From an uncultured delta proteobacterium (lineage in GTDB: Bacteria; Desulfobacterota; Binatia; UBA9968): a stretch of DNA of 64,000 bases. The DNA lies in NCBI GenBank assembly GCA_963847445.1, contig CAWJZV010000006.1, positions 96,001-160,000 of the forward strand, in the 5' to 3' direction. This document shows, in pieces, positions 1 through 55,067 of the stretch. Position 1 is the stretch's first letter. Each line of letters opens with the position of its first letter. The translations under genes and the position numbers were made by a program. Below the pieces are notes generated by a model. The model did not search any database, had not been told where the DNA came from, and saw nothing but the letters and a program-made list of their open reading frames with translations.

Positions 1-402
1 TGACATCGGCGCTGGCAACTTTGTCGGCCCATGCATGCGGCTGTGTTTGATGGATGGAGCTGACATCGGGCCAGATTGCGAGCAGGGGTAGTTTCAAATT
101 CACGGCAAGTTCTTGCAGTTGCTCGACAACGATGGGCATGCGCACATCCAGGGATTCATTGGCGTCGCCAAGACGCTGGCAGTCATCGATGACGACGAAC
201 GGCGTGCCGTCGATTTGACGAATCTGGGTTTCGATTTTTTTCGGCGTCGTAATGCGATCACACTCCACTAAATAGATTTGATCGAGCCAGCTCTTCGCTT
301 CTTCAGCGCAGCGCCGCAGTTTTTCCCAGCTCGGTGCGAGTTCATCGGCGCTGGCATGGTGCGCTTTGGGGACGCCGTACCAGTGCAAGAGGTATGCGCT
401 GC
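1..402 (-). CDS. DnaB-like helicase C-terminal / RecA-fold domain fragment; runs off the window edge and has no visible N-terminus
   Basis: Manual minus-strand translation SAYLLHWYG...PFVVIDDCQRLG...EQLQELAVNLKLPLLAIWP...ADV resembles the DnaB Walker-B and 'LKxLAKELxxPV' region. Not in the ORF track. Confidence 0.55.
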
Positions 403-403
403 T

Positions 404-487
404 GCGCCGGCGTATCCGCAATCGGTGTTCGGCTTCGCGTCGTTCTCGGATCAGATCGCGGATGAGATGGCCATCAATCCGGTCGAG
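404..487 (+). pseudogene. Short internal fragment of a xanthine dehydrogenase-family molybdopterin-binding subunit
   Basis: APAYPQSVFGFASFSDQIADEMAINPVE resembles the RAPGxPQxxFxxESxxDxxAxxxGxDPVE motif of XdhA/YagR-type subunits. Confidence 0.5.
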
Positions 488-1293
488 GCCTCGATTACGT
501 TCGCGAGGAGCGCGGCGGTTTCCGCATCGGTGCCCTGGCGAAGCTGGCCGATATCGAGGAGCACGCCGCGATTCGTGAGAAACTTTTGATTCTCGCCGAT
601 GCCGCTGGCGACGCGGCATCGCCGCAGATTCGTAACGCCGGCACCATCGCCGGCAATATTTGCCAGCGGCCGTTCTGCTGGTATTTTCGTTCGTCCAATT
701 TCACCTGTCTGCGTAAAGGCGGACAGCTCTGTTACACCGTCACCGGCGACGGCCGCTTCCATGCGATCCTCGGCGCTGGCCCGAGTTATATCGTGCACCC
801 GTCCGATACCGCACCAGCGTTGGTGGCGCTCGGCGCGCAGATCAAGATCGTCGGACCCGCGGGCGAGAAGACCTTACCGCTGGAAAAGTTTTTCGTCCTG
901 CCGTCAGTGGATTACAAACGGGAGAATATTCTCAACCCCGGCGAAATCGTCACGGAGATTTTCGTGCCGACGCCCAAAGCTGGCAGCAAGGGTTTTCACC
1001 ACAAAGTGCGCGAACGCTTGGCTTGGGACCATGCCATCGTCGCCGTCGACACCATCGTCGAAAGCAGCGGCGGCGTGGTGCGACATGCCAGTGTGGTCAT
1101 GGGCGGGGTCGCGCCGATTCCCTGGCGCGCGCAGAAGGCCGAGGAGTTTCTCCGCGGGAAACGGCTCGACGAAGCGACGGCTAAACAAGCCGGGGAGATC
1201 GCCCTCGAAGGCGCGAAGCCGCTGAAAGACAACATCTACAAAATTAAATTGGCCCAGGAGCTGATTCAGCGGGGACTGCTGGCTTCGATCTAG
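487..1293 (+). CDS. Xanthine dehydrogenase-family FAD-binding subunit (YagS/CoxM-like), N-terminally truncated
   Basis: GLDYVREERGGFRIGAL, ASPQIRNAGTIAGNICQRPFCWYFR, HPSDTAPALVAL, GGVAPIPWR. Frame is closed upstream by TGA at 463. Confidence 0.88.
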   Translation, partial: GLDYVREERGGFRIGALAKLADIEEHAAIREKLLILADAAGDAASPQIRNAGTIAGNICQRPFCWYFRSSNFTCLRKGGQLCYTVTGDGRFHAILGAGPSYIVHPSDTAPALVALGAQIKIVGPAGEKTLPLEKFFVLPSVDYKRENILNPGEIVTEIFVPTPKAGSKGFHHKVRERLAWDHAIVAVDTIVESSGGVVRHASVVMGGVAPIPWRAQKAEEFLRGKRLDEATAKQAGEIALEGAKPLKDNIYKIKLAQELIQRGLLASI

Positions 1294-1406
1294 ACTGCCG
1301 TGGGCGATGCCTGGTAATTTCCCCAAGGCACACTGTTAACTCGAGTCGGCTTCGTACTTGAGCGAAGTACAGCTGACAAGCAAGCCGGTTGGCGGGCAAT
1401 TTCGAC

Positions 1407-1435
1407 TTGACCCGTTTATGCCGAGCCCTTACACT
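1407..1435 (+). promoter_or_regulatory. Sigma70-type promoter
   Basis: TTGACC-N17-TACACT, 9 nt before ATG 1445. Confidence 0.55.
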
Positions 1436-1444
1436 TTTGGCTTC

Positions 1445-2216
1445 ATGCTCGCCGAGGTTTTAAAGAATCGCTATTTGATCGCAGGCGCGGCGTTGTTTCC
1501 AGTCGCGCTGATGCTGATCCTGTTCGTCAGCGGTCGTGAGAATCTTCGTCTGCCGTGGATGAAGAGCAGTATCAGCATTGAGCCTTCGGGCGCCGATGCT
1601 ATTGCGCAGATGAGAGAATTTCTCGCCAAGGAGCGGCGCCAGCTTGGCCAGTTCGAACAGCGAACAGGCGACGCTTCGTGCCGAGGTTATTCGCCAGCGC
1701 AAGCTGTTGCAGGAAGGCCAGCTTTCTCACGAACAAGTTAAACAGACCGAGCAGTTGTTCGTCGCGGCGCTCAAGCGCGTTCACGAGATGCGTTATACGG
1801 TGACGGAAACCGACATCGCTATCACCGAAGCGGTTCTCGGTGAAAAGGTTTTGCGCATGCCGGCCTTGCCCATCGGTGGATTTAGCCAGACGGCGGAGTT
1901 GACGCGCTTTAATGGGCCTTTCAAATGGTCGATCGCCGAAGCGCCCAGGGTAGAGAAATTCTTCTCGCAAACCTTCGGCCGCCGGCTGCCGATAACGGCA
2001 TTGGGGCAGTCAGATACTCATAATCGCTTAAGGTTCGATCACCGCGATTCAATGGATATCGGACTCCATCCTGATAGCGGCGAGGGCAGGGCGTTGGTTG
2101 GTTTTCTCCGCAAGTCCGGCATTCCCTTCGTCGCTTTTCGCAGCGCGATTCCAGGTGCTGCCACTGGGCCACATATTCATGTCGGCCGCCCGTCGGGACG
2201 GCTTGCTCGCCAGTAA
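1445..2216 (+). CDS. Membrane-anchored coiled-coil protein with putative LAS-type Zn peptidase domain (paralog 1); frameshift near 1643
   Basis: N-terminal hydrophobic helix in ORF 1358-1741, continuing in ORF 1644-2216. Motifs FDHRDSMD and GPHIHVG; strong similarity to 3012-3725. Confidence 0.75.
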
Positions 2217-2360
2217 TCTAGATTCTACATCCATCCAATGGCGGGCAACTCCGCCCGTCAACTTGGTCATTTCCGTCAAACGGGAATTTTGGCTCGTGAA
2301 CTTCCCGTGGTTTCTCCGGTTACGGGCAATCTTGTTGGCGCTTTACCTCGATTACGCTCT

Positions 2361-2376
2361 CGGCATCTTGATTGCT
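2361..2376 (+). promoter_or_regulatory. Sigma54 (-24/-12) promoter of the Flp pilin
   Basis: CGGCATCTTGATTGCT = GG-N10-GC, close to the TGGCAC-N5-TTGCW consensus. Confidence 0.65.
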
Positions 2377-2430
2377 TCGCAAAGGGTTAGGATCGTAGCA
2401 CAATCTAGAAAATATCACTGAGTGGGCAAC

Positions 2431-2619
2431 ATGGATCTGATGAAAAAACTTTTGCGGGAAGAAGCTGGCCAGGGACTGGTCGAGTACACCTTGGTTGTAT
2501 TCGTCGTCGCGCTGCTATTCTGGATGGGTGTGCGCGATACCAACATTGGCACTAGCTTGACTACCGGTTGGGCCAAAATTTCCGATTGTGTGTTCTCGCC
2601 ATTTTCCTGCAGCCCCTAG
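2431..2619 (+). CDS. flp: Flp family type IVb pilin
   Basis: KLLREEAG|QGLVEY prepilin motif followed by a hydrophobic helix; about 60 aa; start may be 2431 or 2440. Confidence 0.88.
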   Translation: MDLMKKLLREEAGQGLVEYTLVVFVVALLFWMGVRDTNIGTSLTTGWAKISDCVFSPFSCSP

Positions 2620-2790
2620 TTTGGTTGGCCGCGCTGGCACAGCCGCGCCTATTTTGGCTGACCACACGACATGGCATACCCCGCGCCGAGCAGTCTTCCA
2701 GACCACGCCGCGTTGACGGCACTCGCCGAGCAACGTGTTAGTTTCATTCGATGTTTTGTTGCCCCATCTCTTGCGACCTGAAATTCACGA

Positions 2791-2932
2791 CAATTGGCGG
2801 TTTATGGTTGGCCACTTGCCTGTTCATGATTGCGAGTCGGCGATCACCGCTCTGGCAAACTTCTGGGTCCGTAGACAAGTGGCCTGCGGCGATAACCAGA
2901 TTCCGAGACGGGTTGGGCTTGACCGCCAATTG
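2791..2932. repeat. Nested inverted repeats; candidate structured RNA
   Basis: CAATTGGCGGT(2791)/ACCGCCAATTG(2922) enclose GGCCACTTGCCT(2810)/AGACAAGTGGCC(2873) and an inner hairpin. Confidence 0.5.
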
Positions 2933-2947
2933 CATACTTCATAGACT
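2919..2947 (+). promoter_or_regulatory. Sigma70-type promoter
   Basis: TTGACC-N17-TAGACT upstream of ATG 2978. Confidence 0.55.
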
Positions 2948-2977
2948 TCAGGGAGAGTTTCGCGTTATGCCAGCCCT

Positions 2978-3725
2978 ATGGAAACCTGCCGAAGAGCGAT
3001 ACCGCTAATATTTGCTGTGGCATTATTGGCGCCGGAGTTGGGCTTGGGCCAGGGCGCGCCAGGAGGCATCGCGGTCCGCTCCGACCGACTCCGAGCTCGC
3101 GCGGTCGCGCAACGACGTGATTCAAAAGACCAAGGAGACCCGTGCTGGCGCCGAAACGCTCTTGGCGTTGCACGAAGCGGAAGTCAAGCGCATTACCGCG
3201 GAATATCAGCGCCGGCGTGAGCTTTACCATGAGGGATATATTTCCCGCACTGAAGTGATTCAGGCGGAGCAAGCGGTGGCGCAGGCGATGTTGCGGCTCG
3301 AGGATGACAAACGCTTTCTCACCGAAACCGACACCGCTCTCACTGAATTTACCATGCGCGATGAATTGCTGCGGCTCCCCGGTTTGGCCCTGGGCGGTTA
3401 CAGCGAAACCAATACGTTACTGCGCTTCAACGGCGCGGCGGGATTTACTTTGGCGGAGGTCGCTAAAATCGAAAGATTTTTTTCGCAATCCTTTGGTCGC
3501 GGGCTGCCGATCAGTGCGCTCGGCCAGACGGTGACCCATGAACGCATGAGATTCGATCATCGCAACGCGGTCGATGTGGCGCTCCACCCCGAGAGCGCCG
3601 AAGGCAAGTCCGTGCTCAACTATTTACGTCAGGCGGGGATTCCATTTGTCGCATTTCGCGGCGCCATCCCCGGTGCCGCCACTGGAGCGCATATTCATAT
3701 CGGCAAGCCTTCGCCGCGTTTGTAG
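2978..3725 (+). CDS. Exported coiled-coil protein with putative LAS-type Zn peptidase domain (paralog 2); frameshift near 3050
   Basis: Signal peptide-like start METCRRAIPLIFAVALLA, continuing in ORF 3012-3725. Motifs FDHRNAVD and GAHIHIG. Confidence 0.75.
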
Positions 3726-3802
3726 AGGACCTGCGCAGAGTTCGGACTGGAGTTTTCCGCTGGAGTTGCAGCCGCGCCGGGTTTTAGCTAAGTCACTTAA
3801 CT

Positions 3803-4546
3803 ATGGCACCGCCAACCACACCCATGCCCGCTTCGACGGTCGTCTTGGCGCGACCGAGCGACAATGGCGCATTTGAAATTTTTATGAACCGGCGTCCGGA
3901 AAAAATGGACACCTACGCTGGAGTCTATGTTTTTCCCGGCGGGCGGGTGGAAAGTACGGATTGGTCGTCGCCCATGCTCAGTTTGGTGCGCGGGGTCACG
4001 CCCGCCGACGCGCAACAAAAGCTCGGCAGCGCGGCCGGACCGGAAGTTTGTTTGGGCTATTGGGTCGCCGCGGTGCGGGAGTTGTTTGAAGAGGCGGGCA
4101 TCCATTTTTTCGTGCAGCAGCACAATCAACCGGCGATCGTGGATGCGACCGGCCTTAGCGCGCGGCTGGCGCAGAAGCGCGCCGAACTGCAACAGGGTAA
4201 ATACGATTTAGCCACCCTGATGGCCGCTGAGCGCTTATATTGCGATGTCGGGCGGCTCAGCTATTTTTTTCATCGCGTCACCCCGGAGCATTATCCTGTG
4301 CGCTTCGATACTCATTTCTATTTGGCTGCTCTGCCCCACGGGCAAAACCCTTTACACAGCTCCGAAGAGGTGGCCGAGAGCCTTTGGGTTGCGCCAAAAG
4401 CGGCGCTCGACCGTGGCCAAGCGGGCAACTTTCCGATGATGCCACCGACCATTGCAGTCTTGCGAACCCTCGCTGCGCACGACTCGTGGAATTCTTTGTG
4501 TAAAGCATTTCAACTATGTGATCCTTACGCCGCCGTGCCAAACTGA
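3803..4546 (+). CDS. NUDIX hydrolase
   Basis: VFPGGRVE ... AAVRELFEEAGI (split Nudix box), TP...RFDTHFY, MMPPT. Confidence 0.88.
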   Translation: MAPPTTPMPASTVVLARPSDNGAFEIFMNRRPEKMDTYAGVYVFPGGRVESTDWSSPMLSLVRGVTPADAQQKLGSAAGPEVCLGYWVAAVRELFEEAGIHFFVQQHNQPAIVDATGLSARLAQKRAELQQGKYDLATLMAAERLYCDVGRLSYFFHRVTPEHYPVRFDTHFYLAALPHGQNPLHSSEEVAESLWVAPKAALDRGQAGNFPMMPPTIAVLRTLAAHDSWNSLCKAFQLCDPYAAVPN

Positions 4547-4643
4547 CAATCCCGTCACCACATTACTTAATCGAGCAACAAAATAGGCCAAAGCTTTACG
4601 CTAAGGTCTGCGCGTTTTCAGCTAGTTATCGCAGACTGCCCGC

Positions 4644-4659
4644 AGGCACCGAGTTTGCG
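4644..4659 (+). promoter_or_regulatory. Sigma54-type promoter upstream of glgP
   Basis: AGGCACCGAGTTTGCG (GG-N10-GC), with an IHF-like TTTCAGCTAGTTA about 20 bp upstream. Confidence 0.5.
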
Positions 4660-4820
4660 TTAAGGCTACCGCAGAGGGACCAGGAATCGATGGACGTAGA
4701 ATTGCCCGATACTATCGATGGTGCTATAATCGTCAGAACTTATCGGAATATCCAGAAACTGACTCCTTTCCCGCTAAGCCATCAATGCCCCGTTAGCCGT
4801 TAGATCGTTAAATTCGTCAA

Positions 4821-6560
<1,740 letters not shown>

Positions 6561-6609
6561 TTCAGAGCTGCTGGTTCGCGCTTGGTTGACGATTCCGATT
6601 CAAAAAACT

Positions 6610-7470
6610 CTAGCGAGAGGTTTCGATAAAATTCTTGAGCCGCTCATAGTAGCCATCGCCGCCGGCGATGAAGGTGTCGTTATGGCCCGCGCCCTTGATC
6701 GGATAAAACTGCTTGGGTTGGCGGGCGGCGGCGAAGACTCTCTGGCCCTGCTCGAAGGGAATGATCTCGTCCTGGTCGCCGTGCAACACCAGCAGCGGCG
6801 CGGTTATTTTTCCAACTTTGTCGATGACGTCAAATTTTGCGCTTAACAGCGGGCCGATCGGCAAGGCGGGCAAAACTATTTTGGCCATGTCACTTATTGA
6901 AGCGAAGGGACTTTCCAGGATGACCGCTCGGCTGCCGTGGCGGGTCGCCATCTCGGCGGCCACGGCGGCGCCTAAGGAGCGGCCGAAGATCAGAAGATTT
7001 TTGCTCTCGACTTGCAATTGCGTGCGGACGAAATTCATCGCCGCGTCGCCGTCGATATAGGTTGTCGTTTCCGACGAACTGCCGGGGCTGCGGCCGTAGC
7101 CGCGGTAGTCAAAAATAAAAATGCTGATACGAGTCTTGTCGTGCAGGAGCTTGATGTTGTCCACTCGGTCGCCGATGTTGCCCGCGTTGCCATGAAACCA
7201 AATCATCGTCGCGCTGGCCTGAGGGTGGGGAATGAACCAGCCGTTGAGACGGACATTGTCGGCGGTGGTGAAGTAGAGATCCAGGTAGTCTAAACCGACG
7301 TCGCGCGGCGTGCGCGCGATGGCGGTGGTGGGATGAAAGAGCAGCCGATTCTCCAGGCCGCAACCGGTTAACAGCCAGAGCAATACGATTAGAAAATTGC
7401 CGGCGCCAAGGCGTTGCAGCGCCGCCGATCGGCAGCATTTAACTTGATCGTTCTGAGTCAGCCGGAACAA
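6610..7470 (-). CDS. Alpha/beta hydrolase (start uncertain)
   Basis: FHGNAGNI, DYRGYG, GRSLG nucleophile, HGDQDEIIP, GAGHND. Confidence 0.9.
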   Translation of the reverse strand: MFRLTQNDQVKCCRSAALQRLGAGNFLIVLLWLLTGCGLENRLLFHPTTAIARTPRDVGLDYLDLYFTTADNVRLNGWFIPHPQASATMIWFHGNAGNIGDRVDNIKLLHDKTRISIFIFDYRGYGRSPGSSSETTTYIDGDAAMNFVRTQLQVESKNLLIFGRSLGAAVAAEMATRHGSRAVILESPFASISDMAKIVLPALPIGPLLSAKFDVIDKVGKITAPLLVLHGDQDEIIPFEQGQRVFAAARQPKQFYPIKGAGHNDTFIAGGDGYYERLKNFIETSR

Positions 7471-7509
7471 GGCGGGTCATCCAAGTGAAACCGTGCCGCG
7501 CACCTGGTT

Positions 7510-8046
7510 TCAGTGCTTATGCTCGCCGCGGAGTTTCCACTCCAGGCCATCGATAATGCACTCGACGCTTGCCTGCAAAATATCGGCGGCGACGCCGACG
7601 GTACCCCAGCGTTGGTTGCCGTCGGCGAAGATCGCCAGCACCCGCACCAATGCACCGGCGCCGTTTTCCTCTTCATCGCTGGCAACGCCATGCAACAGGC
7701 GCACGTCGAACTCTTCCAGCGTTACCTCTGACAATTGCGGATAGTGTTTCTCAAGGATCTTACGCATGGCGTTATCGACGGCATGCACCGGACCACGGCC
7801 GCCGGCGGCGACCAGCTCTTCGTCGCCGAAGACTTCGATGAGCACGGTAGCCTCAGTGTGGCTGCGATGGCTTTCGATCGCCTGAAAGTCCACTTGATCG
7901 TCGATCTTGCAGCGCAAGACGCGAAACGGTATCAGATAGTCCTGACGGCGTCGGATCGCCATCAGTTCAAAAGACGCCCAGGCACCCTCAAGCCGAAAAA
8001 AGTCTTCCTTCAAGTCTCTTGCCATGATTTTCTCCCGTAACCCCAT
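7510..8046 (-). CDS. Stand-alone LeuA/CimA allosteric (dimerisation) domain protein
   Basis: EGAWASFEL, TEATV, GRGPVHAVDNAMRK, VRVL, WGTVGV..DILQAS resemble the citramalate synthase C-terminus. Confidence 0.75.
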   Translation of the reverse strand: MGLREKIMARDLKEDFFRLEGAWASFELMAIRRRQDYLIPFRVLRCKIDDQVDFQAIESHRSHTEATVLIEVFGDEELVAAGGRGPVHAVDNAMRKILEKHYPQLSEVTLEEFDVRLLHGVASDEEENGAGALVRVLAIFADGNQRWGTVGVAADILQASVECIIDGLEWKLRGEHKH

Positions 8047-8180
8047 TTACGCCAATGACTGTGTGCGCCATTATATTCCTCAAGGTAAAAAGCGCTAGGC
8101 CGATCCCGCGCATCTCGTGAATCAAACGGATCGAGGGGAAAATCTTTGCAGTAACGCGCAAGTCTGGTATCCTTTTGGCG

Positions 8181-8756
8181 ATGGCGATGGAAATCAAGGC
8201 ACCGGAGAATAGCTTGCAGGGGTATTTTCTCCAAGTGGTGCGTCAGAGCTTTTGGCAAGTGGGGATTTATGACGCGACGGTCGCCCAGTATGTCGCCGAC
8301 GTCTTGGCCGACTTTGCGCGGGCCGACAATCTCTACCAAATGCGCGGCCGGGGTGGACGCAAGATCGACAGCGTCGTCGAGATGCTCGCGCAAGCGCCGG
8401 CAATGCCGGCCGACGAGGCCGATGTCCTGCGCCAGCGCAGGTTACGAAAGTACGTGGGCGATTACGCGCTGTTCATGAGCGGGATTTTTCGCAAGTACAT
8501 CGAGGGCAAGGGTTCCCTGGATTATTATATTCAAGAGGGCAGCCGGTCCTATTGGACGGTTTCCGAACTCGACCTTGCTCTCTACCGCACCGGTTATTAT
8601 CTCTACCAGGAACTTTCGACCAAGTTCGAGTACTACTCCGGTGCGCTTGACTTCATGCGCAAGACTCACTTCGCGGCGGCGCCAGGCGAAGACCCGTTCG
8701 CGGGTTTCCTTCGACAAATAAGAGGCTGGATGAAAATCCACGTGAGCGAGAATTGA
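8181..8756 (+). CDS. Hypothetical protein
   Basis: Long ORF; motif RKYVGDYALFMSGIF..DYYIQEG; -10-like TATCCT 7 nt before ATG 8181. Confidence 0.75.
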   Translation: MAMEIKAPENSLQGYFLQVVRQSFWQVGIYDATVAQYVADVLADFARADNLYQMRGRGGRKIDSVVEMLAQAPAMPADEADVLRQRRLRKYVGDYALFMSGIFRKYIEGKGSLDYYIQEGSRSYWTVSELDLALYRTGYYLYQELSTKFEYYSGALDFMRKTHFAAAPGEDPFAGFLRQIRGWMKIHVSEN

Positions 8757-8804
8757 GCGCTCTTAACCGGTAATCGCTCCGCGCCAGTCACGGAACTCGC
8801 CAAC

Positions 8805-9845
8805 TTGAAAATCCTCCGCACCACACTGCTTGCCACGGCGCTGGTTCTGCCGCTGGCAGCGGGGCTGTTCTTCTACAACATTTATTATTCCCGGCCTGCC
8901 AGCGGTGGCTATCCAATCGAGGTCAGAGTTGAGTCCGGCGATTCATTCGCTACCGTGACGCGCAAGTTGCGCGCGCAACAGGTGATTTCCAACGGTTTAT
9001 TTTTTTCCTTATGGGCTCGTTTTAACGGCGCGGAGAAAAAAATTCACCAGGGGCTGTATCGCTTCGAGAGCAGCGTCGCACCTTGGGAAGTCTTAGAACG
9101 GTTGGTGGCCGGCAAAGGGATCTTTCATAGCGTAACCATCCCCGAAGGACTGACGATCAAGGAGATCGCCGAGCTCTTAGACAAGATGCAAATCGCCAAC
9201 AAGGAGAAATTTCTCGCCGCCGCCGCCGATCCCAGTGTGCTCACCGCGCTCGGGCTTGGCGATAAAGGTCTCGAAGGATATTTATTCCCCAGCACCTATC
9301 ATTTTACGCCGGCAACGCCGGAACGGGACATTGTCATCGCAATGGCCGAGCAGTTTCGCAGATCGTCCCAACCACTATTGGTTAAGACCGCAACGACGAA
9401 GCAGTTCTCCACGCACGAGCTACTGACGTTGGCTTCGATCGTCGAGAAAGAGACTGGCGTGGAAGCGGAGCGCGGTCTGGTCGCCGCAGTGTTTCACAAC
9501 CGGCTCAAGCGGCAGATGCCGCTGCAGAGCGACCCGACGGTGATTTACGGCCTTAAAGATTACAACGGCAATTTGACCAAGAAAGACCTGCGCGACGACA
9601 ACCCTTATAACACCTATCGGATCGGCGCGTTGCCGCCGGGGCCGATTTGCAATCCGAGTCTGTCGTCGATTAAGGCGACTCTCAACCCCGCGGATGTTCC
9701 CTATATCTATTTCGTCTCGAAGAACGATGGCACCCATGCGTTTTCGGAAACCATCGAAGAGCATAATCAAGCGGTTAAAACCTACCAGCCGGTGCGCGAA
9801 CCGGCACGCGTGCAAGGCAAAAAGGCCTTAGCGACACATCGCTAA
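8805..9845 (+). CDS. mltG: Endolytic transglycosylase MltG
   Basis: TIPEG, LEGYLFPSTY, LASIVEKET, VFHNRL, LQSDPTVIYG, YNTY...LPPGPICNP. Confidence 0.95.
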   Translation: MKILRTTLLATALVLPLAAGLFFYNIYYSRPASGGYPIEVRVESGDSFATVTRKLRAQQVISNGLFFSLWARFNGAEKKIHQGLYRFESSVAPWEVLERLVAGKGIFHSVTIPEGLTIKEIAELLDKMQIANKEKFLAAAADPSVLTALGLGDKGLEGYLFPSTYHFTPATPERDIVIAMAEQFRRSSQPLLVKTATTKQFSTHELLTLASIVEKETGVEAERGLVAAVFHNRLKRQMPLQSDPTVIYGLKDYNGNLTKKDLRDDNPYNTYRIGALPPGPICNPSLSSIKATLNPADVPYIYFVSKNDGTHAFSETIEEHNQAVKTYQPVREPARVQGKKALATHR

Positions 9846-9905
9846 GCTCGCATTTCAGCTACCGCCTACGAGATGTTATAGTTCCCACGATGTCGTCTCC
9901 AAGCC

Positions 9906-11286
9906 ATGGCCCCGAGGGTGAGAGAAGCGGAAAATTTGGTCACTCGTCTGGCGGCGCGCTTGGGCAGTCATGTGCTGTGGGATTCATTGTTGATCTTCAT
10001 GCCGCCGGTGTTGGCGGCGCTCTTCATTGCGTTTTCCGTCTATCGCGCCGCCTGGATATCGCCGCTGGTTTTTTGGCTCATGGCAACTTGCCTCGCGGCG
10101 CTGGGCCTACTCTTGGTGATCTTACGCTATCGACCATTGATCCCATCGGTGCCGGCGGCGGCTGGGCTGATCGACCGCCAGGCGAGGTCCCAGGATCGCT
10201 TTCTTACCTTGGCGACGCTTGGAAGCTCACCACAACCGGCGAACTTGGTCGCGCGCCTGCGCCAAGAAACCTCGGGTTTCGGCGAACGCATCCAGTTTGG
10301 CCGGGATTTTCCCTATAAATTCAAGCAGTCGTGCTACCGCTCGTTGGCGGTGTCGACGGTCGCGGCGATTTTATTTCACCTGCTCATTCCCGTTGCCGAG
10401 TCGGTCATTGGGCCGGTGAGCGTGCAACAGAAACTGCGCCAAGTCGCCGAGAAAATGGCCGAGAAAGAATCTCTCAAGGCGCTGGCACAGGAGTTAAAGG
10501 CGCTGGCGGCTAAGCTCGACGACCCGAAAGCGACGCCGGAGGAAAAACAAGCGGCGGCCGAGGAGCTTGAGAAAAAAATCGAGAAACAAAAAAAGAAAGA
10601 AGAAGAAAAAGAAAACCGCGATCTGCTCAGTCAAGCGGCGAACTCGCTCAAGGGCACCGAGCAGCAGCAATCGGCCAGCGGTGAAGAACAGAAGAAAGAT
10701 CAAGATAAGGGCGGCGGCGGCATTCAGAGCAATGCGCCGCAGGACGGCAAAGGGGAAGGCAAGAAAAGCGATGGCAGCGGTTCGGATAGCAAGGGCGAAC
10801 AGAGCGCGCAGATGAGCAATGACATGAAGCAGGGCAGTGCCGCGCAGGGCAATCCGAAGGAAAAGGGCGACGAGAAAAACCAACAGTCACCAAGCGACGC
10901 CAAGGGTGACCAGCGCGACCCCAATCAGCCGGGCAAAGAACAGAACAACGAAAAGACCGGTAAAAACCAAGGAGCTGCGAAAGAAGGAGCGGGGAAAAAT
11001 CAGGTCGTCGGAAGAGCCGCCCCAAGGGGCGCCGCCGGCGGAGCGGTTTTATAAAGCCGGCGAGGGCAAGGAAGGCATCAAAGGGGCGGGTTATGTCACG
11101 GTACAGTTGCCGGAGGACGTGGTGGCGGACAGCAAAGCCGAGGGCAAACCGACCAAGGCGGGTGGCGCTGGCAATCGGGCGCGACCACAATTGCCGGTGA
11201 GTAACGCACCATTGCCTGCGCACGTACCCAACGCGCCCACGGAAAAACAGCAGATGCCAATCGAATATCGCGGCATCATTCGTTGA
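9906..11286 (+). CDS. Membrane protein with long charged, Gln/Gly-rich C-terminus; frameshift near 11005
   Basis: Three hydrophobic helices, then a low-complexity region. C-terminus (MPIEYRGIIR) is in ORF 10837-11286. Lies directly upstream of MoxR. Confidence 0.7.
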
Positions 11287-11298
11287 TGGAAAGGGAGT

Positions 11299-12285
<987 letters not shown>

Positions 12286-12520
12286 TCCGAACTTCGGAAT
12301 TGAGCGTTAACGCGCGCCAACCACAAGTATTCTGCAGTGAAGCCATGGGTCTCTACCGCTAAGCAGTGATTAAACCTGGTGCGTCCCGTCAGCTCGGTTG
12401 GAAAGCGATCGAGTGGCGTGGAGGGAATAAGAAGCTGCGATCGTATCGCTGGGTGGCGTCACTGCTCCGGACTTGCCACTTGCCGAGTGGACTGCCGTAT
12501 TTCAATTGCGGATTTCAGGA

Positions 12521-13417
12521 TTATTTCATCTTGTTCTTTATCGCTGGGATCGATTTCAAGTAATCGGCGATCGCCAGGGCGTCCTCTTTGGTCATGTCTT
12601 TGTAGCCGTGAGTCGTGCCCCGAATCACCTCTTCCATGAGACCCTGAACGTTATCGTAGTCGGGTTTAGTTCCCGTTAGCAACAATTCGGCGATATCTTC
12701 GCGCTTCCAGTCGCCGATGCCGGTTTCTTTGTCCGGCGTGATGTTAGGAACCAGTTCGCCGATCGGGCCATCTTTGGGCGAGCCTGCCATGTAGAGCGAT
12801 TGGTTGGGCACGCCGAAGGAGTTTCGCGGTGTGTGGCAATCGCCGCAGATGGCGACATGATTCGTCAGATATTTTCCCCGCTGGATGCCGCTTTTGGGGG
12901 CCTGGGCCGGTGATTCGTAAAAAGTACCAAATGCTTTGAGCCATAACTCGGTGACGACGCTGCGCATAAAGGGTGTAGAGGTCTTCAACTCGGGCGTCGC
13001 TTTTTTGACTGGCTTGAGCGACCTGAGATAGGCCACCAGCGCTTTCAAATCCTCCTGCGCCATGCCGGAGTATAGGGTGTAAGGCATGAGCGGCAGCTGT
13101 CGGCTGCCGTCTTTGCGCAGGCCCTTGATGATTGCATCGATGATCTGTTGATCGGTCCAATTACCCAGACCGGTGTCGTTGTCCGAGGTGAGATTGGTGC
13201 TGTAGACTGTCCCCAGCGGGATCTGAAACGGGCGCGCGCCGGCGTTATGGACGCCCTTGGGCTCGGTATGGCAAGCGCAACCGCCGGAGACGGCGAAGAT
13301 ATATTGACCGCGGGCGACCAATTCTTTTTGAGTCCCCTGGGCGTAAGCCAACGGCGGGACGCATAGGAAGAATAGCCAAAGCAACAGCAGGATTTCTTTG
13401 CTTCTTATCGCCGGCAT
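12521..13417 (-). CDS. Exported diheme cytochrome c
   Basis: Signal peptide; two heme-binding motifs (GCACH, CGDCH); NLTSDxxTGLG and NITPDKETGIG repeats. Confidence 0.88.
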   Translation of the reverse strand: MPAIRSKEILLLLWLFFLCVPPLAYAQGTQKELVARGQYIFAVSGGCACHTEPKGVHNAGARPFQIPLGTVYSTNLTSDNDTGLGNWTDQQIIDAIIKGLRKDGSRQLPLMPYTLYSGMAQEDLKALVAYLRSLKPVKKATPELKTSTPFMRSVVTELWLKAFGTFYESPAQAPKSGIQRGKYLTNHVAICGDCHTPRNSFGVPNQSLYMAGSPKDGPIGELVPNITPDKETGIGDWKREDIAELLLTGTKPDYDNVQGLMEEVIRGTTHGYKDMTKEDALAIADYLKSIPAIKNKMK

Positions 13418-13426
13418 GAAGTCTCC

Positions 13427-14356
13427 TTAGGGGTTGAGTTGCGCGCGAATTCTTTGATCTAAAAACTTGAGCGTGGCATAAAATACTTGATTGATCGGCA
13501 CTGGGGTTCCGGCTCGTCGCAGTATTTGCACCACTATGCCATTGAAGGCTTGGTATTCAAGCGGTTTGCCGGTTTCCAGATCTTGCAGCATGGAGGGTTT
13601 GAATGCGCCGAGGGTGCGCGAAAACGTCATGATCTCATCGAACTGTTCGCGCCGCAGATCGATGTTGCGCGTGCGCGCGGCCGTTTGCACCTCGGCCATG
13701 CAGTCGAGCGCAAGCGCAGTCAAAGACTCCGACTCGACAATCTGTTTGACATCGGCGTGGGCCAAACAGCTGATGGCGCAAAACGGTGCGTTCCACAGCA
13801 GTTTGGTCCATTGAATTTTCTGAATATCAGCGCTGATCTCACAGGGGATGCCGGCAGCGCTGAGAATTTCCCGGAGCAATTTAGACGGTGCGCTGGCGCC
13901 GCCGTCGCTCTGTCCGAAGATAATTCGGCCACCGTTGGCATGGGTGATAACTCCAGGAGAGGTCAATTGCGCGCCGACATAGACAACCGCCGGTAAGACT
14001 TGCTCTGGATGATAGACGCGCGCGAGTTTTTCCGGGTTATCGATGCCGTTTTGCAGCGAAAGGATATGCGTCCGGTCGCTAACCAGCGGCCGGATTTGTT
14101 CGGCGGCGGTTTCGCTGTCGTAGGATTTGACGCAAAACAGAATCAGATCGACTTTGCCAATCGTTGCGATATCGTCGGTGAACTGTGCGTTGTCGATCTG
14201 TAAATCGTCATTGGCGCTCGTGACCCGGAGACCGCTTGCCCGGAGTGCCTGCAAGTGCCGGCCACGGGCGATGAAGGCTACCTCATGGCCTGCGGCGGCG
14301 AGTTTCGCGCCGAAATAACCGCCGACAGCACCTGTGCCCATGACAGCGATACGCAT
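13427..14356 (-). CDS. panE: 2-dehydropantoate 2-reductase
   Basis: MRIAVMGTGAVGGYFG, VKSYD, LQNG, WTKLLWN, PSMLQD. Confidence 0.92.
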   Translation of the reverse strand: MRIAVMGTGAVGGYFGAKLAAAGHEVAFIARGRHLQALRASGLRVTSANDDLQIDNAQFTDDIATIGKVDLILFCVKSYDSETAAEQIRPLVSDRTHILSLQNGIDNPEKLARVYHPEQVLPAVVYVGAQLTSPGVITHANGGRIIFGQSDGGASAPSKLLREILSAAGIPCEISADIQKIQWTKLLWNAPFCAISCLAHADVKQIVESESLTALALDCMAEVQTAARTRNIDLRREQFDEIMTFSRTLGAFKPSMLQDLETGKPLEYQAFNGIVVQILRRAGTPVPINQVFYATLKFLDQRIRAQLNP

Positions 14357-18133: not shown

Positions 18134-18344
18134 GGCCGATTAATTTATCACCTTACGTGGTGGGGTCAACCGGTGGGGCGGCCCGGCAGAGATCGAGGAT
18201 TGCCACAGAGATTCGGAGATCGTGGCATGAGCGGATTAACGATTATTAGTGCCGTTACGCCGCTAATATCGCATGGTGCACTTCGTGCAGACAAGTCGAT
18301 GCTATCTTAGATTGGTTCTATCAGTTTTAGCGCGGTAAATACTC

Positions 18345-18715
18345 ATGAAAGCGATTCTTTTGGTGGGAATAGGACGGCTTTATCGAATCGGTGCTGCGTT
18401 ACCTGCTCTTTGGCTGGGTACCGGTTTTGGACAAGCCCTGGTTTCCGGCCGGAATGTTCGCGGTTAGTGTTATCGGCTGCTTGGTCATCGGATTACTCGG
18501 TCGCGGAACAGCGGCCAATTTTCGCGGCCGAATTCAAGTTATATTTATTCATCGGCATTCTCGGCGGCTTTACCACATTTTCCACTTTCTCTGCTGATGA
18601 GACTCTATCTCTGGTCCATAATGGTCATGACGCTGCCGCGTTTATGAACATCGCGCTGCAGGTCATGGTTGCGCTATTGGCCGTTTGGCTGGTCTCCTGG
18701 CGCGATTGCCTGACC
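18345..18715 (+). pseudogene. crcB: Fluoride channel Fluc/CrcB with several frameshifts
   Basis: MKAILLVGIG..., VLRYL, FPAGMFAVSVIGCLVIGLL and GILGGFTTFSTFS distributed over different frames. Confidence 0.8.
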
Positions 18716-18756
18716 TTTGACGGCCCGGATTCCGCCCAAGAATTTCTTAAAATTTT

Positions 18757-18784
18757 GGAACTTTGGTAAGTCTGGGACGTCTAA
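18757..18784 (+). promoter_or_regulatory. ECF (RpoE-like) promoter
   Basis: GGAACTT-N16-TCTAA. Confidence 0.6.
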
Positions 18785-23992: not shown

Positions 23993-25436
23993 ATGAAAAC
24001 ACTTATTCAAGGCGGCTGGGTTGTCGGCTTCGACGGCAACGAACACGAAATCATCAAAGACGGCGTGGTCGTTTACGATGGTAATCGCATCGAATTCGTC
24101 GGCAAAGATTATCCACAACCGGTCGACAAACGGATCGACGCAAAAGGCTGCTTGGTTTCGCCTGGATTCATCGACACTCACTTTCACTCCGGCATCAACG
24201 CCAGCGACTACATTCTCGCGGATTCGACCAAGACCGATTTCTTTGCGTCGAATTATCTCGCTCACGGCGGGCCGACCCGCGAGGGCGCGCACTCGGCGCA
24301 TTTGAAAGACGTCGACATCGGCCAGCGGTTTTCGATTATTCACGTTTTGAAAAGCGGCGTGACCACGACCTTCGACATCGGCGGCGCCGGCGGCTGAGCC
24401 GGCGCGCTATGTCGACATGATCGATCAGGTCGGTATTCGCTGCGTCGCCGGTCCGAGCTACAAGAACGTTTCCTTTTTTCACGATAAAGCGGGCCGGCTC
24501 GAATATGATTGGAACGACGAACGCGGCAGCAAAGGACTCCAGACCGCGGTGGACTTCGCCAAAAAGTTCAACGGCGCGTGCAGCGGCCGCATGACGGCGA
24601 TGTTGTTTCCCGGCCATGTCGACTCGTGCACGCCGGCGTTGCTGAAGGAAACCAAAACCGCCGCCAAGGATGCCGGCGTCGGCATTCAGATTCATGCGAC
24701 GATCAATCTGTTCGAGTTCCACACGGTCATGCAGCGCGAACGCTGCACCCCGATCGAGCTATTGAAAAAGCTCGGCTTCCTGGCGCCTGATGTTTCATTG
24801 TCGCACTGCATCTTTGTCAGCGGCCATAGCTGGCTCGCCTATCCCTACGGCGACGATCTTAAAATCATCGCCGACTCGGGCTCGTCGGTAGCCTATAGCC
24901 CGCTTAAATATTTGAAGCTGGGCATTCTCATGGAATCCTTCGACCGCTACCGCCAGGCCGGCATCAACATGGGCATCGGCACGGACACTTTCCCCAAAGA
25001 CATTCTCTCCGACATGCGCTACGCCGGCATCGCCTCGCGCATCGCCGACAAGAGTTTTCTCGCCGGTCAGCCGCGCGATGTCTTCAACTCCATCACCCTC
25101 GGCGGCGCCAAGATGATCGGCCGCGACGACATCGGCCGGCTAGCGAAAGGCGCCAAAGCCGACATCGCCATTGTCAATCTGCGCGACATTGCCTTCGGCG
25201 CCGTGCACGATCCGATCCGTTCGTTGATGGAAACCGCCGTCAGTCGCGATGTGCGCACCGTCATCGTCGACGGCGAAACCCTGGTCGACAACGGCAAGTA
25301 TTTGCGCCTGGACGAACAGGAGTTGCTCGACAAAGTTCAGACCAAGGGCGAACAAGTCTGGGACAGCGTGTCCAAGTGGCACTGGACCGGCAAGACGATC
25401 GACGAAGTCGTGCCGCCGAGTTTTCGCATGAAGTAA
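23993..25436 (+). CDS. Amidohydrolase family protein (SsnA/AtzA-like); frameshift near 24395
   Basis: PGFIDTHFH, QIHAT, LSHC, GIGTD, GRLAKGAKADI. Confidence 0.88.
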
Positions 25437-37483: not shown

Positions 37484-37840
37484 ATGAGCGCGGACGCCGT
37501 CAAAAAGATCATTGACCCTTTTCTCACTCATGGGATTTGTAAAGATGAGGCCGAGGCGTTGAAGATGCTGGCCAAGGATTACGTCCGGCGTCAGGTCAGT
37601 AAATATCACGAGCGAGTGGAGCATTTTCGCTCCTTCTACCAGATGTCGGTGGAAGATTTTGCCAAGCAGGTGGCTGCGCTTTGCCAGGGAACCGAGACAA
37701 TCCCTGTGTTGAGCCATCTGAACAAACAACAACAGATCTTGCAGGCCGAGGATGATTTAGAGGAATGGCAGGCCGCCGAGCAGTTCCTAGCCCGCTGGCA
37801 GGCAGTGGAGGCGGATTTGCCGAATGCTCCCGCTGCTTGA
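37484..37840 (+). CDS. Putative antitoxin (small helical protein)
   Basis: FRSFYQMSVEDF..EDDLEEW; overlaps the downstream toxin-like gene by 17 nt. Confidence 0.55.
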   Translation: MSADAVKKIIDPFLTHGICKDEAEALKMLAKDYVRRQVSKYHERVEHFRSFYQMSVEDFAKQVAALCQGTETIPVLSHLNKQQQILQAEDDLEEWQAAEQFLARWQAVEADLPNAPAA

Positions 37841-38168
37841 GTCTCTCCTACGGACTTCTTCTAAGGTCAAATCCTTTCATATCATCGATAGCGATCCGCT
37901 CGATGAGGAGAACTTCCTCTTTAAGATCCGCTGTGAGCTGATATCGGGACAAACCCTCCAGATAAGGCTTCGAGCAGTTTTCGGCAGCATCCGATATTCA
38001 TATCAGGAATTCTCAGAAATCCCATTGCGGCGCTGGGATAACGCGCCCCATTTTCCCAATCTTCCGAACTTTCCACACCATCATCACGACTCTCAAGGCA
38101 ACATTTTGGAATCAACGCTGACAGGCGATCCGACCGCCGACCTTGATCGAGTGTTAAATACACTATAG
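37824..38168 (+). CDS. DUF6516 / TumE-like putative toxin
   Basis: RYSYQ...RRWDNAPHFPNLPNFPHHHH motif. Confidence 0.7.
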   Translation: MLPLLESLLRTSSKVKSFHIIDSDPLDEENFLFKIRCELISGQTLQIRLRAVFGSIRYSYQEFSEIPLRRWDNAPHFPNLPNFPHHHHDSQGNILESTLTGDPTADLDRVLNTL

Positions 38169-53953: not shown

Positions 53954-54055
53954 ACGCGCAGTGCCTTGCGTGGCGATAGCCCTGACGAACAATCGTTGAT
54001 CTATCGCGGTAACGAGCCGATTTCAGCCAATAATCATTTTTCGTGTGGATCGACC

Positions 54056-55067
54056 ATGGCTAGAGAGATTGGCGTCGTCGGCGCCGGCGGTTGGGGTACG
54101 GCGCTGGCCAAGCTGCTGGCCGACAAGGGCGAGCGGGTTACTTTGTGGTGTCATGGCGACGGCTAGTTTTCGCGAACTGGCGGAACAACGGCAGAATTTG
54201 ACTTATCTCCCCGGCATTTTGCTGCCCGACAATCTTGCCGTCACTCAGACGTCTAAAAGATGCGGTGGCCGATAAATCGCTGGTGATTTGTGCCGTGCCA
54301 TCCCATGCGGTGCGCGCAAGTATTCACCGACGCGGCGCGCGTACTTCGATCGCCAAACGCTTTTGCTGTGCGGCACCAAGGGGCTGGAAGAGCCGACACT
54401 GCAGACCATGGCTGAGCTGTTCGGCGATATTCTCGGCGCCGCAAGCAAGGAACGCCATGGCTTTCTTTCCGGGCCGACCTTTGCGATCGAAGTTGCCCGG
54501 GGCTTGCCGGCCGCGGTGACAGTCGCTTCCACTTCAGAAAACGTGGCGCTCTCGATCCAAGAGATGCTCAGCACCGCCAGTCTGCGGGTTTATACCTCGC
54601 TCGATGTGGTCGGCGTGCAAATGGGCGGCGTGGTGAAAAATGTCATCGCCATCGCCGCTGGCATTAGCGATGGTCTCGGCCTCGGGCAGAACGCCAGGGC
54701 GGCGTTGATCACCCGCGGTTTGGCGGAAATCACCCGTTTGGCTGTACGCATGGGTGCCGATCCGACGACCTTGGCGGGATTGCCAGGTTTGGGCGATTTA
54801 GTGCTTACCTGTGCCGGTGACTTGAGCCGCAACCGCGCGGTGGGTTTACAGATCGCCGCCGGCAAGAGTTTGCAGGAGATTACGAGTTCGACTCGCACCG
54901 TGGCTGAAGGGGTACGCAATACCCGCGCGCTGCACGCTTTGGCCCAGCGTTTGGCGGTGGAAATGCCGATCGTCGAGCAGATGTACCAGGTGCTCTATGG
55001 CGCTAAGCGGCCGGCCGACGCGGCGCGCGATTTGATGCAACGGTCGCTAAAACCCGAGGCCGGTTAA
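54056..55067 (+). CDS. gpsA: NAD(P)H-dependent glycerol-3-phosphate dehydrogenase; frameshifts in the 5' part
   Basis: GAGGWGTALA, SGPTFA.EV, KNVIAIAAG, GLGDLVLTC..LSRN. Confidence 0.93.

Follow-up and report, generated by a model that had tools for sequence, protein, structure and literature searches.

A 64-kb stretch of DNA from an uncultured member of the Binatia (contig CAWJZV010000006.1, positions 96,001 to 160,000), referred to here as the window, contains two genes on the same strand, designated A and B, that flank a short open reading frame (ORF) for a Flp-like prepilin. The two genes encode anciently diverged paralogs that belong to a large and uncharacterised family of envelope proteins from bacteria, about 250 amino acids (aa) in length. 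In each protein, an N-terminal anchor or signal peptide precedes a hairpin of two helices, approximately 100 residues long, which leads into a C-terminal domain of 115 residues (C-domain). The best overall explanation, for which we put the chances at about even, is that A and B are envelope hairpin proteins with a probable zinc site and a LAS-like peptidase domain. A preliminary description, made from the window sequence, had proposed a periplasmic module in which a wall hydrolase with the hairpin of a membrane fusion protein (MFP) docks on an outer membrane channel, possibly in the service of a pilus. That interpretation was partly supported: it was half right on the anatomy (the MFP-type hairpin and the LAS-type motif), but its TolC/pilus mechanism was unsupported. 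Coordinates below are those of the window, in which the locus begins with the −35 box of A at 1407 and ends with the B stop codon at 3725.

Architecture and conservation of the A and B family

The conserved start codon of A is ATG 1445 and that of B is ATG 2978. Gene A (1445 to 2216, forward strand) encodes an N-terminal signal anchor, the alpha-hairpin, and the His/Asp C-domain, and gene B (2978 to 3725, forward strand) encodes a cleavable signal peptide followed by the same two parts. Both genes are split over two frames in the window, as seen in the ORF listing and in three-frame translation; the N-terminal hydrophobic segment of A is in one frame and the remainder (1644 to 2216) in another, and the signal peptide of B, read from ATG 2978, is likewise in a different frame from 3012 to 3725. 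The two larger pieces are 50% identical over 187 aa in an ungapped alignment (E = 1e-71), which bears out the paralogy noted in the preliminary description. The motifs it quoted were all found in the window copies: FDHRDSMD and GPHIHVG in A, FDHRNAVD and GAHIHIG in B, and the coiled-coil sequences RQRKLLQEGQLS and RRRELYHEGYIS in the pair. All 22 A orthologs begin with M-x-x-[ED]-x-x-K/R and a hydrophobic helix.

The family is large. A word-indexed search returned 1059 proteins at E ≤ 1e-3 among 2461 candidates, with a typical length of 248 aa. When 1.84 billion cluster representatives were searched exhaustively with HMMER, 765 matched at E ≤ 1e-3, of which 542 reached E ≤ 1e-10 and 139 reached E ≤ 1e-30. 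The family size of 765 is a count of clusters at 50% identity, at E ≤ 1e-3. Among the 120 homologs listed, lengths were mostly 238 to 263 aa, and those with a name were almost all called "hypothetical protein"; three carried the JGI name AcrA-type membrane-fusion protein, and three carried Spy/CpxP family protein refolding chaperone. Precomputed labels for PF25885 and PF25994, putative MFP helical-hairpin families, were attached to about 27 of these 120, and a fresh scan of five of them at E ≤ 1 failed to reproduce the labels. Most members belong to soil lineages that are uncultured and carry the label Candidatus Binatia; some loci bear the label Acidobacteriota or Methylomirabilota instead. 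Neither Pfam nor NCBIfam annotates the family, and the C-domain, which had no Pfam, NCBIfam, or PDB match, corresponds by sequence comparison to no described family, the literature searches not having been aimed at this one. A Pfam scan of the 12 longest members found no domain fusions and no extra Pfam domain. One of the 12, P0202 (481 aa), contains the entire hairpin-plus-domain unit twice in tandem, and its second copy has Tyr in place of the first His of H-x-H.

Residue conservation was taken from a 112-sequence alignment and is given in the numbering of mature B (218 aa). The invariant positions are P147, G152, Q153, H157, H164, D169, P174, H208, H210, G212, and S215, which fall within the single 115-residue alpha/beta domain that follows the hairpin. 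AlphaFold2 (AF2) modelled mature B (3069 to 3722) with a pLDDT of 96.3 and a pTM of 0.85. In the model, helices at residues 7 to 54 and 60 to 102 are joined by a turn at E-G-Y-I-S and precede an alpha/beta domain at residues 111 to 218.

MFPs were the best sequence-profile and Foldseek matches of A and B. A profile of the family compared with the PDB gave the TriAB-type MFP 6vej (E = 3.5e-4) and EmrA (8e-4) as best matches; SilC, CusC, MexJ, MacA, LipC, and AcrA (0.07) followed, and ZneB was also among the hairpin matches. NCBIfam models for EmrA, TolC, and HlyD matched at E values of 7e-4 to 4e-3. Foldseek with the full model returned EmrA (probability of 0.99), MacA, and HlyD (root mean square deviation of 1.0 Å over 91 columns), at E values of 0.04 to 0.2. 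Since the PDB profile, NCBIfam, and Foldseek matches point to MFPs, the predicted hairpin of A and B resembles the MFP hairpin, as the preliminary description had held. With EmrA, MacA, HlyD, AcrA, and TriAB, the A and B proteins share the long antiparallel alpha-hairpin and the tip pattern, and EmrA and HlyD also carry an N-terminal membrane anchor, as A does. Unlike the hairpin of an MFP, however, that of A and B is not an insertion in a lipoyl domain and runs straight into the 115-residue His/Asp domain. The lipoyl, beta-barrel, and membrane-proximal domains of MFPs are absent from the model of mature B, and HlyD_D23, Biotin_lipoyl_2, and RND_mfp gave no domain match at curated thresholds.

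The hairpin tip was also compared with that of MFPs. According to extracts of PMC3391258, MacA, AcrA, and MexA contact TolC through a tip with the R-x3-L-x6-S (RLS) motif, and the predicted tips of both window copies match R-x3-L-x6-S exactly. R-x3-L-x6-[ST] is present in 13 of the 112 family members; by ortholog group, 8 of 22 A sequences and 4 of 21 B sequences have it. The RLS part of the earlier hairpin assignment thus failed the refuting test set in the preliminary description itself. A relaxed pattern, [RK]-L-[STA], was found in 48 of 112 members, and the commonest triplet among B orthologs is R-L-A, with Ala replacing Ser. What is conserved at the tip across the family is [RK]-x-L-x3-G-[LIV]-[IV]-[SA]-[RK]-x-[ED]. 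A cofold of the periplasmic part of A with mature B, both from the related locus L001, had a score of 0.02 (mark, 0.32) and was not used as evidence.

The C-terminal His/Asp domain

H157, the H164-x4-D169 pair, and H208-x-H210 are invariant in all 112 aligned members, and to this extent the LAS-type motifs put forward in the preliminary description were confirmed. Modelled alone by AF2, the C-domain had a pLDDT of 96.4 and a pTM of 0.90, with the element order beta-beta-alpha-beta-alpha-beta-alpha-beta-beta. D169 and H208-I-H210 are on predicted strands, as the zinc ligands of LAS enzymes are. As modelled, the C-domain shares with LAS enzymes of the M15A/Hedgehog type (MepK, VldE, and phage M15 endolysins) an H-x(n)-D motif followed some 40 residues later by H-x-[HD], with both motifs on beta-strands of a small alpha/beta domain. 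Its predicted element order likewise parallels that of M15A: strand, helix, "S-x-G" strand, H..D strand, helix, strand, and H-x-H strand.

LAS families of the M15A, VldE, and Hedgehog kinds were the only named neighbours of the C-domain by protein language model features and by subthreshold Foldseek matches. In the ESM-Atlas, the nearest four Pfam-named clusters listed were Peptidase_M15_3, VldE, Peptidase_M15_2/DUF882, and HH_signal (score of 0.84), and the ten best named matches share one family or clan. In the top 50 BFVD matches from Foldseek, "Peptidase" was at ranks 1 and 17 and "Peptidase M15A, C-terminal" at ranks 14, 16, and 43; a cell-wall hydrolase and a hedgehog-like entry were also present, and the LAS-type entries had TM-scores of 0.38 to 0.45. 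The C-domain of VldE was at rank 23 in the PDB (TM-score of 0.38); extracts of PMC11667670 describe VldE as an L,D-endopeptidase of the LAS group whose ligands are H-x6-D and H-x-H. The ESM-Atlas, BFVD, and PDB leads, each of them weak, agree with one another in pointing to a LAS fold.

A series of results weighs against that assignment. Beyond the lack of a Pfam or NCBIfam match, a scan of 124 members at E ≤ 10 gave no M15, M23, or M74 among the 25 most-matched Pfam families listed. A domain-only profile produced one chance match in the PDB, at an E value of 5, and PHROGs, searched with 64 members, gave single chance matches at E ≥ 0.09. Comparison by hhalign with E. coli MepK relatives, and with MepK plus six phage M15 peptidases, resulted in probabilities of 0.2 to 0.5%. 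Foldseek with the C-domain found nothing at E ≤ 0.001 in the PDB or BFVD, and the best TM-scores were below 0.5; of the structural support sought in the preliminary description, the alpha-hairpin was recovered, and no M15/M23-like match reached that E value. ESM-Atlas scores below 0.9 are leads only, and a third of shuffled proteins also obtain ten concordant named hits. No cell-wall theme was seen in the gene neighbourhoods examined. In addition to having no significant sequence, profile, or fold match to the M15A type, the C-domain has H-x4-D instead of the H-x6-D of M15A-type LAS enzymes, and SA-x-GQT-x2-H takes the place of the M15A SGYR arginine motif. On balance, the pattern of invariant residues indicates that the C-domain probably binds zinc; whether it is a LAS-like zinc peptidase is, on motif and model, close to an even call.

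A coiled coil joined to a LAS domain is not unprecedented, because EnvC has such an architecture. As described in extracts of PMC7668044 and PMC10214136, EnvC is a coiled coil plus a LytM domain, which is a LAS domain, and the coiled coil binds FtsX, a MacB relative. The earlier claim of an undescribed module is in this respect weakened, and it stands as regards the missing Pfam and NCBIfam annotation. A and B share with EnvC and PcsB an exported coiled coil followed by a small domain, putatively also of the cell-wall-enzyme type in A and B, but the A and B family has no LytM, CHAP, or NlpC/P60 match, its hairpin is closer to those of MFPs than to EnvC, and no FtsEX linkage was seen. CwlO and RipC are other coiled-coil regulators of cell-wall hydrolases. 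The LytM domain of EnvC is degenerate, whereas the putative catalytic residues of the A and B family are invariant.

Reading frames, transcription signals, and neighbouring genes

The two frameshifts reported for the window were traced by blastn against the related locus L001, which is collinear over 487 to 13728 at 92.8% identity. Relative to L001, there is one extra base at 1659 in A and one at 3068 in B. A is in a single frame in L001 to L006, L012, and L015, and one frame likewise gives METCRR...GQGAPGGSRS.PTDSELARS in the intact 248-aa B homologs P0001 to P0003; the reading frame is open in each of the 22 A and 21 B orthologs examined. Programmed frameshifting was ruled out, since relatives encode both proteins in one frame. 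Three further uncompensated 1-nucleotide (nt) insertions, at 8143, 9925, and 11004, each interrupt an ORF that L001 has intact (269 aa versus 211 aa in one case; 494 aa broken into three pieces in another), so the breaks are not peculiar to A and B. Within 13 kb, there are accordingly five frame-breaking insertions and no uncompensated deletions in coding sequence. Because relatives are intact and three more such insertions lie nearby, sequence error is the likelier cause of both breaks, and we consider it probable.

That the insertions in A and B fall outside homopolymers, which is not the classic long-read error, weighs against sequence error and speaks for A and B being, in this genome, true pseudogenes, frameshifted just after the export signal within a decaying region. 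The first 486 bases of the window also fuse two nonadjacent L001 pieces, so that most of a dehydrogenase operon is gone, and several other window genes cover only part of their Pfam model. Five insertions without a deletion in 13 kb, at 92.8% identity and with promoters intact, nevertheless resemble a systematic consensus artefact, and every A and B ortholog examined is open; we regard the pseudogene explanation as unlikely.

The junction and the partial genes were recorded in their own right. Window positions 1 to 486 join L001 3570 to 3977 to L001 6133 to 6215; the missing 3.4 kb or so includes most of a 749-aa ORF and the N terminus of the FAD-binding subunit gene, and the join is either a deletion or an assembly join. 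Partial Pfam matches comprise a glycerol-3-phosphate dehydrogenase N-domain matched from position 91, Amidohydro_1 from position 77, the LeuA dimerisation domain alone, and a partial CrcB, in genes at 54000 to 55064, 24363 to 25433, 7513 to 8046, and 18311 to 18766. These are consistent with further frame breaks or truncations across the window.

The sigma70-type promoters of A (TTGACC-N17-TACACT, 1407 to 1435) and B (TTGACC-N17-TAGACT, 2919 to 2947), both on the forward strand, were located by pattern scan. TTGACC-N17-TA[C/G]ACT has just these two matches in the 64 kb and none in 100 shuffles. Among relatives, TTGAC[CG]-N17-TAnACT is upstream of A in 22 of 23 sequences and upstream of B or the single-copy ortholog in 29 of 30, and the 17-nt spacers have diverged freely. 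Since the element is kept while the spacer diverges, this phylogenetic footprint argues that both promoters, recognised already in the preliminary description, are real. Position 1407, taken there as the start of the span, is the −35 box and not a gene start. An ATG at 1418 falls within the A promoter, and a stop precedes the equivalent position in L003, L005, L006, and L012. Exactly 9 nt separate the −10 hexamer from the ATG of A in 20 of 22 loci, with 8 or 10 nt in the remaining pair, and no Shine-Dalgarno sequence precedes this ATG at 1430 to 1447 or at the equivalents in L001 to L051. The placement of the ATG 9 nt after the −10 box suggests that the mRNA of gene A is leaderless or nearly so.

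The Flp-like gene has signals of a different type. GGCATCTTGATTGCT, at 2362 to 2376 on the forward strand and 55 nt before the flp ATG, is a sigma54-like box (GGCAT-N5-TTGCT; the sigma54 consensus is TGGCAC-N5-TTGCW). As a lone match, it is at chance level (0.85 expected per window); in the alignment of the flp-bearing loci, GGCA and TTGCT are invariant columns in eight of eight while the flanks diverge, which upholds the GG-N10-GC promoter suggested earlier. No Sigma54_activat match was found among the 69 window ORFs, and sigma54 activators need not be linked to their target promoter. Two stem-loops follow A (2235 to 2290, forward strand), the second succeeded by a U-run; RNA folding of 2214 to 2300 gave −25 kcal/mol (z = −2.1), and the loci that carry flp, when aligned, keep the first stem, GGCGGG...CCGCCC. 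A second terminator-like element, a stable G+C-rich stem-loop with UAUUUU (2619 to 2667, forward strand), comes after the stop of flp, and the fold of 2612 to 2680 was −28.6 kcal/mol (z = −3.05), with 0 of 200 shuffles as stable. Because each has its own promoter, of differing type, and terminator-like hairpins intervene, A, flp, and B are predicted to be three separate transcription units. No Rfam match was found in 1200 to 4000 at E ≤ 1. The ORFs at 2742 to 3005 and 2518 to 2784 were rejected as genes, since neither matches any family and their conservation extends no further than near-identical relatives.

The genome scan yielded 51 related loci (L001 to L051), nearly all on contigs of metagenome-assembled genomes and most labelled Candidatus Binatia or delta-proteobacterial; a few were labelled Methylomirabilota, Acidobacteriota, or others. 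In 22 of them, the order is A, spacer, B, a NUDIX hydrolase gene, and a phosphorylase-like gene, with the FAD subunit gene of a molybdopterin dehydrogenase upstream of A wherever the locus reaches that far. L022 to L024 have just one copy, placed between the gene for the FAD subunit and that for the NUDIX hydrolase. The A-B spacer measures 200 to 2200 nt and is variable in content, with no gene at all in some relatives. In nine loci (L005 to L008, L010, L012, L014, L018, and L051), it contains an opposite-strand gene for a trypsin-like (Trypsin_2) protease of about 264 aa with a signal peptide, which the window lacks and which occurs together with flp in L006 and L012. Conservation was also seen for an ORF of some 130 to 160 aa with no family match (VANIEP...LLD..), present in the spacers of four loci (L010, 8297 to 8740; L014, 8219 to 8698; L025, 8895 to 9329; and L048, 7722 to 8114). 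The 97 ORFs around 10 distant single-copy homologs included varied neighbours, namely, UvrD, a spermine-synthase-like gene, GT87 with IspF, OmpA with VWA, and AAA with VWA, and none belonged to tad, secretin, OEP, MFP, or pump families. In contrast to MFPs, the A and B family was never beside a transporter or outer membrane factor in the contexts examined, which were the 69 window ORFs, these 97 ORFs, and the FAD-subunit/A/B/NUDIX/phosphorylase synteny.

The Flp-like ORF (2431 to 2619, forward strand; 62 aa; alternative GTG start at 2422) has the leader MDLMKKLLREEAG, followed by QGLVEY, a hydrophobic helix, and a C-terminal C-x3-SPFSC. It contains a Flp-type processing motif, ...REEAG|QGLVEYTLVVFVVALLFW, in which the leader ends in G and is followed by x4-E-Y and the hydrophobic segment; the same G|x4-E-Y motif is found in seven related loci. 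The ORF thus shares with the Flp/Fap type IVb prepilins of Tad pili a short Gly-ending leader, x4-E-Y, a hydrophobic helix, and a length of about 60 aa. Of its 39 relatives at E ≤ 1e-3, 12 have the JGI name "Flp pilus assembly pilin Flp." In contrast to Flp/Fap prepilins, it is below Pfam thresholds (no PF04964 [Flp_Fap] match at E ≤ 10 for the window ORF or four orthologs; PF16982 [Flp1_like] at E values of 0.08 to 0.16 in three of five orthologs), has a conserved C-x3-SPFSC cysteine pair, has no tad/cpa genes in the 64 kb, and keeps the sigma54-type promoter in eight of eight loci. The conserved end of the orthologs, C-x3-SPF[ST]C with two cysteines, is at 2587 to 2616 in the window. L008 (8603 to 8830) and L050 (13 to 57) have just the C-terminal piece, which suggests decayed copies.

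Tad/cpa, secretin, prepilin-peptidase, and OEP families were not found among the 69 window ORFs at E ≤ 1e-5, so the pilin is an orphan as far as these 64 kb are concerned. A Flp-like ORF occupies the spacer in 7 of 22 A-B pairs (L001, L002, L004, L006, L012, L015, and L019), and Flp-like genes are near homologs in just 7 of 51 loci, all close relatives. A motif scan of the 51 loci plus the window, with a stricter pattern that misses L019, found Flp-like ORFs nowhere else. With the survey of neighbourhoods showing no tad genes, the proposed pilus link was not borne out. The window itself is unremarkable chromosomal DNA, with rnpA-yidD-yidC-jag and gyrB-gyrA among its genes. An ORF at 37791 to 38165 with a TumE toxin family match (E = 4e-12) adjoins a 138-aa ORF with no family match, and the two may form a toxin-antitoxin pair.

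Possible roles in the cell envelope

We infer the following working model. A would be held at the inner membrane by its uncleaved signal anchor, and B would be released into the periplasm by its signal peptide. Each mature protein is predicted to have an antiparallel two-helix hairpin of the MFP kind, about 70 Å long, with the 115-residue alpha/beta domain at its base. His157, His164-x4-Asp169, and His208-x-His210 would most likely form a zinc site, and the domain would most likely be a divergent LAS-type (M15A/VldE/Hedgehog-like) peptidase whose substrate would be the stem peptides of peptidoglycan or some related peptide with D-amino acids. The role of the hairpin may be that of a spacer or of an arm for oligomerisation or docking. 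The Flp-like gene, a putative separate sigma54-type unit with its own terminator in a variable spacer, would be a neighbour by descent and not a demonstrated partner of A and B, and the frame breaks in both genes would probably be sequence errors. A bolder version, in which a pump-free MFP hairpin oligomerises or docks tip to tip on an outer membrane channel, a secretin, or another envelope machine and so places a new LAS branch at a defined height in the periplasm, with A as the membrane-tethered and B as the soluble subunit of a new class of trans-envelope enzyme, seems to us improbable.

Other explanations differ in what they make of the C-domain and of the hairpin. Four invariant His residues and one invariant Asp, together with the lack of detectable peptidase homology, would also suit a noncatalytic metal- or client-binding module, either a periplasmic metallochaperone or stress chaperone resembling Spy, CpxP, or ZraP, or a metal-efflux accessory; the Spy/CpxP name on 3 of the 120 listed homologs and the metal-pump components SilC, CusC, and ZneB among the hairpin matches could be read in the same direction. 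The Spy/CpxP names, however, are automatic and based on the coiled coil, no metal-resistance genes were seen in the neighbourhoods examined, and H-x4-D on one strand with H-x-H on a later strand is the LAS order and spacing, with LAS families as the only named neighbours by embedding and fold. We therefore rate a noncatalytic role as rather unlikely, and slightly more doubtful still is an EnvC-like arrangement, in which the hairpin would bind an FtsX/MacB-type ABC machine or another membrane partner and switch the C-domain, or a hydrolase under its control, on or off. The binding of FtsX, a MacB relative, by the EnvC coiled coil (extracts of PMC7668044 and PMC10214136), the presence of MacA among the best hairpin matches, and the tethering of A to the inner membrane all fit such a switch; yet no FtsEX or MacB genes were beside the homologs examined, EnvC was absent from the top 50 Foldseek matches of the full model, and there was no LytM/M23 match.

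Least probable of all, in our estimate, is the mechanism of the preliminary description, in which the hairpin tip docks on a TolC-like channel or secretin while a wall hydrolase opens peptidoglycan for a Flp pilus or for cell-cell contact. The exact R-x3-L-x6-S at the predicted tip of both window copies, which in extracts of PMC3391258 is the TolC-contacting tip of MacA, AcrA, and MexA, speaks for it, as do hairpin profile matches headed by MFPs and outer membrane factors and the Flp-like gene in the A-B spacer of the window and seven relatives. Docking on TolC is nevertheless made unlikely by the poor conservation of the tip (strict RLS in 13 and relaxed RLS in 48 of 112 members, with R-L-A commonest in B orthologs), by the absence of the MFP assembly domains, and by the lack of OEP, HlyD, RND, ABC pump, or tad genes among the 69 window and 97 distant-homolog ORFs. 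As for the pilus, 15 of 22 A-B pairs have no Flp-like ORF, and A, flp, and B differ in promoter type and have their own terminators. At present, the A and B family opens no route to pilus biogenesis or TolC biology.

The envelope hairpin proteins with a probable zinc site define a sizeable unannotated family (765 clusters) with a very confident predicted structure and five invariant potential metal ligands. For an uncultured phylum, the loci also offer good examples of regulatory sequence, with sigma70-type promoters that have survived deep divergence, a gene layout of the leaderless type, and a Flp promoter of the sigma54 type. If the C-domain is indeed a zinc peptidase, it would represent a new branch of the LAS superfamily, and A and B would join the EnvC-type proteins as the second case in which a helical arm is coupled to a LAS-type domain, in this case with an arm borrowed from efflux adaptors.

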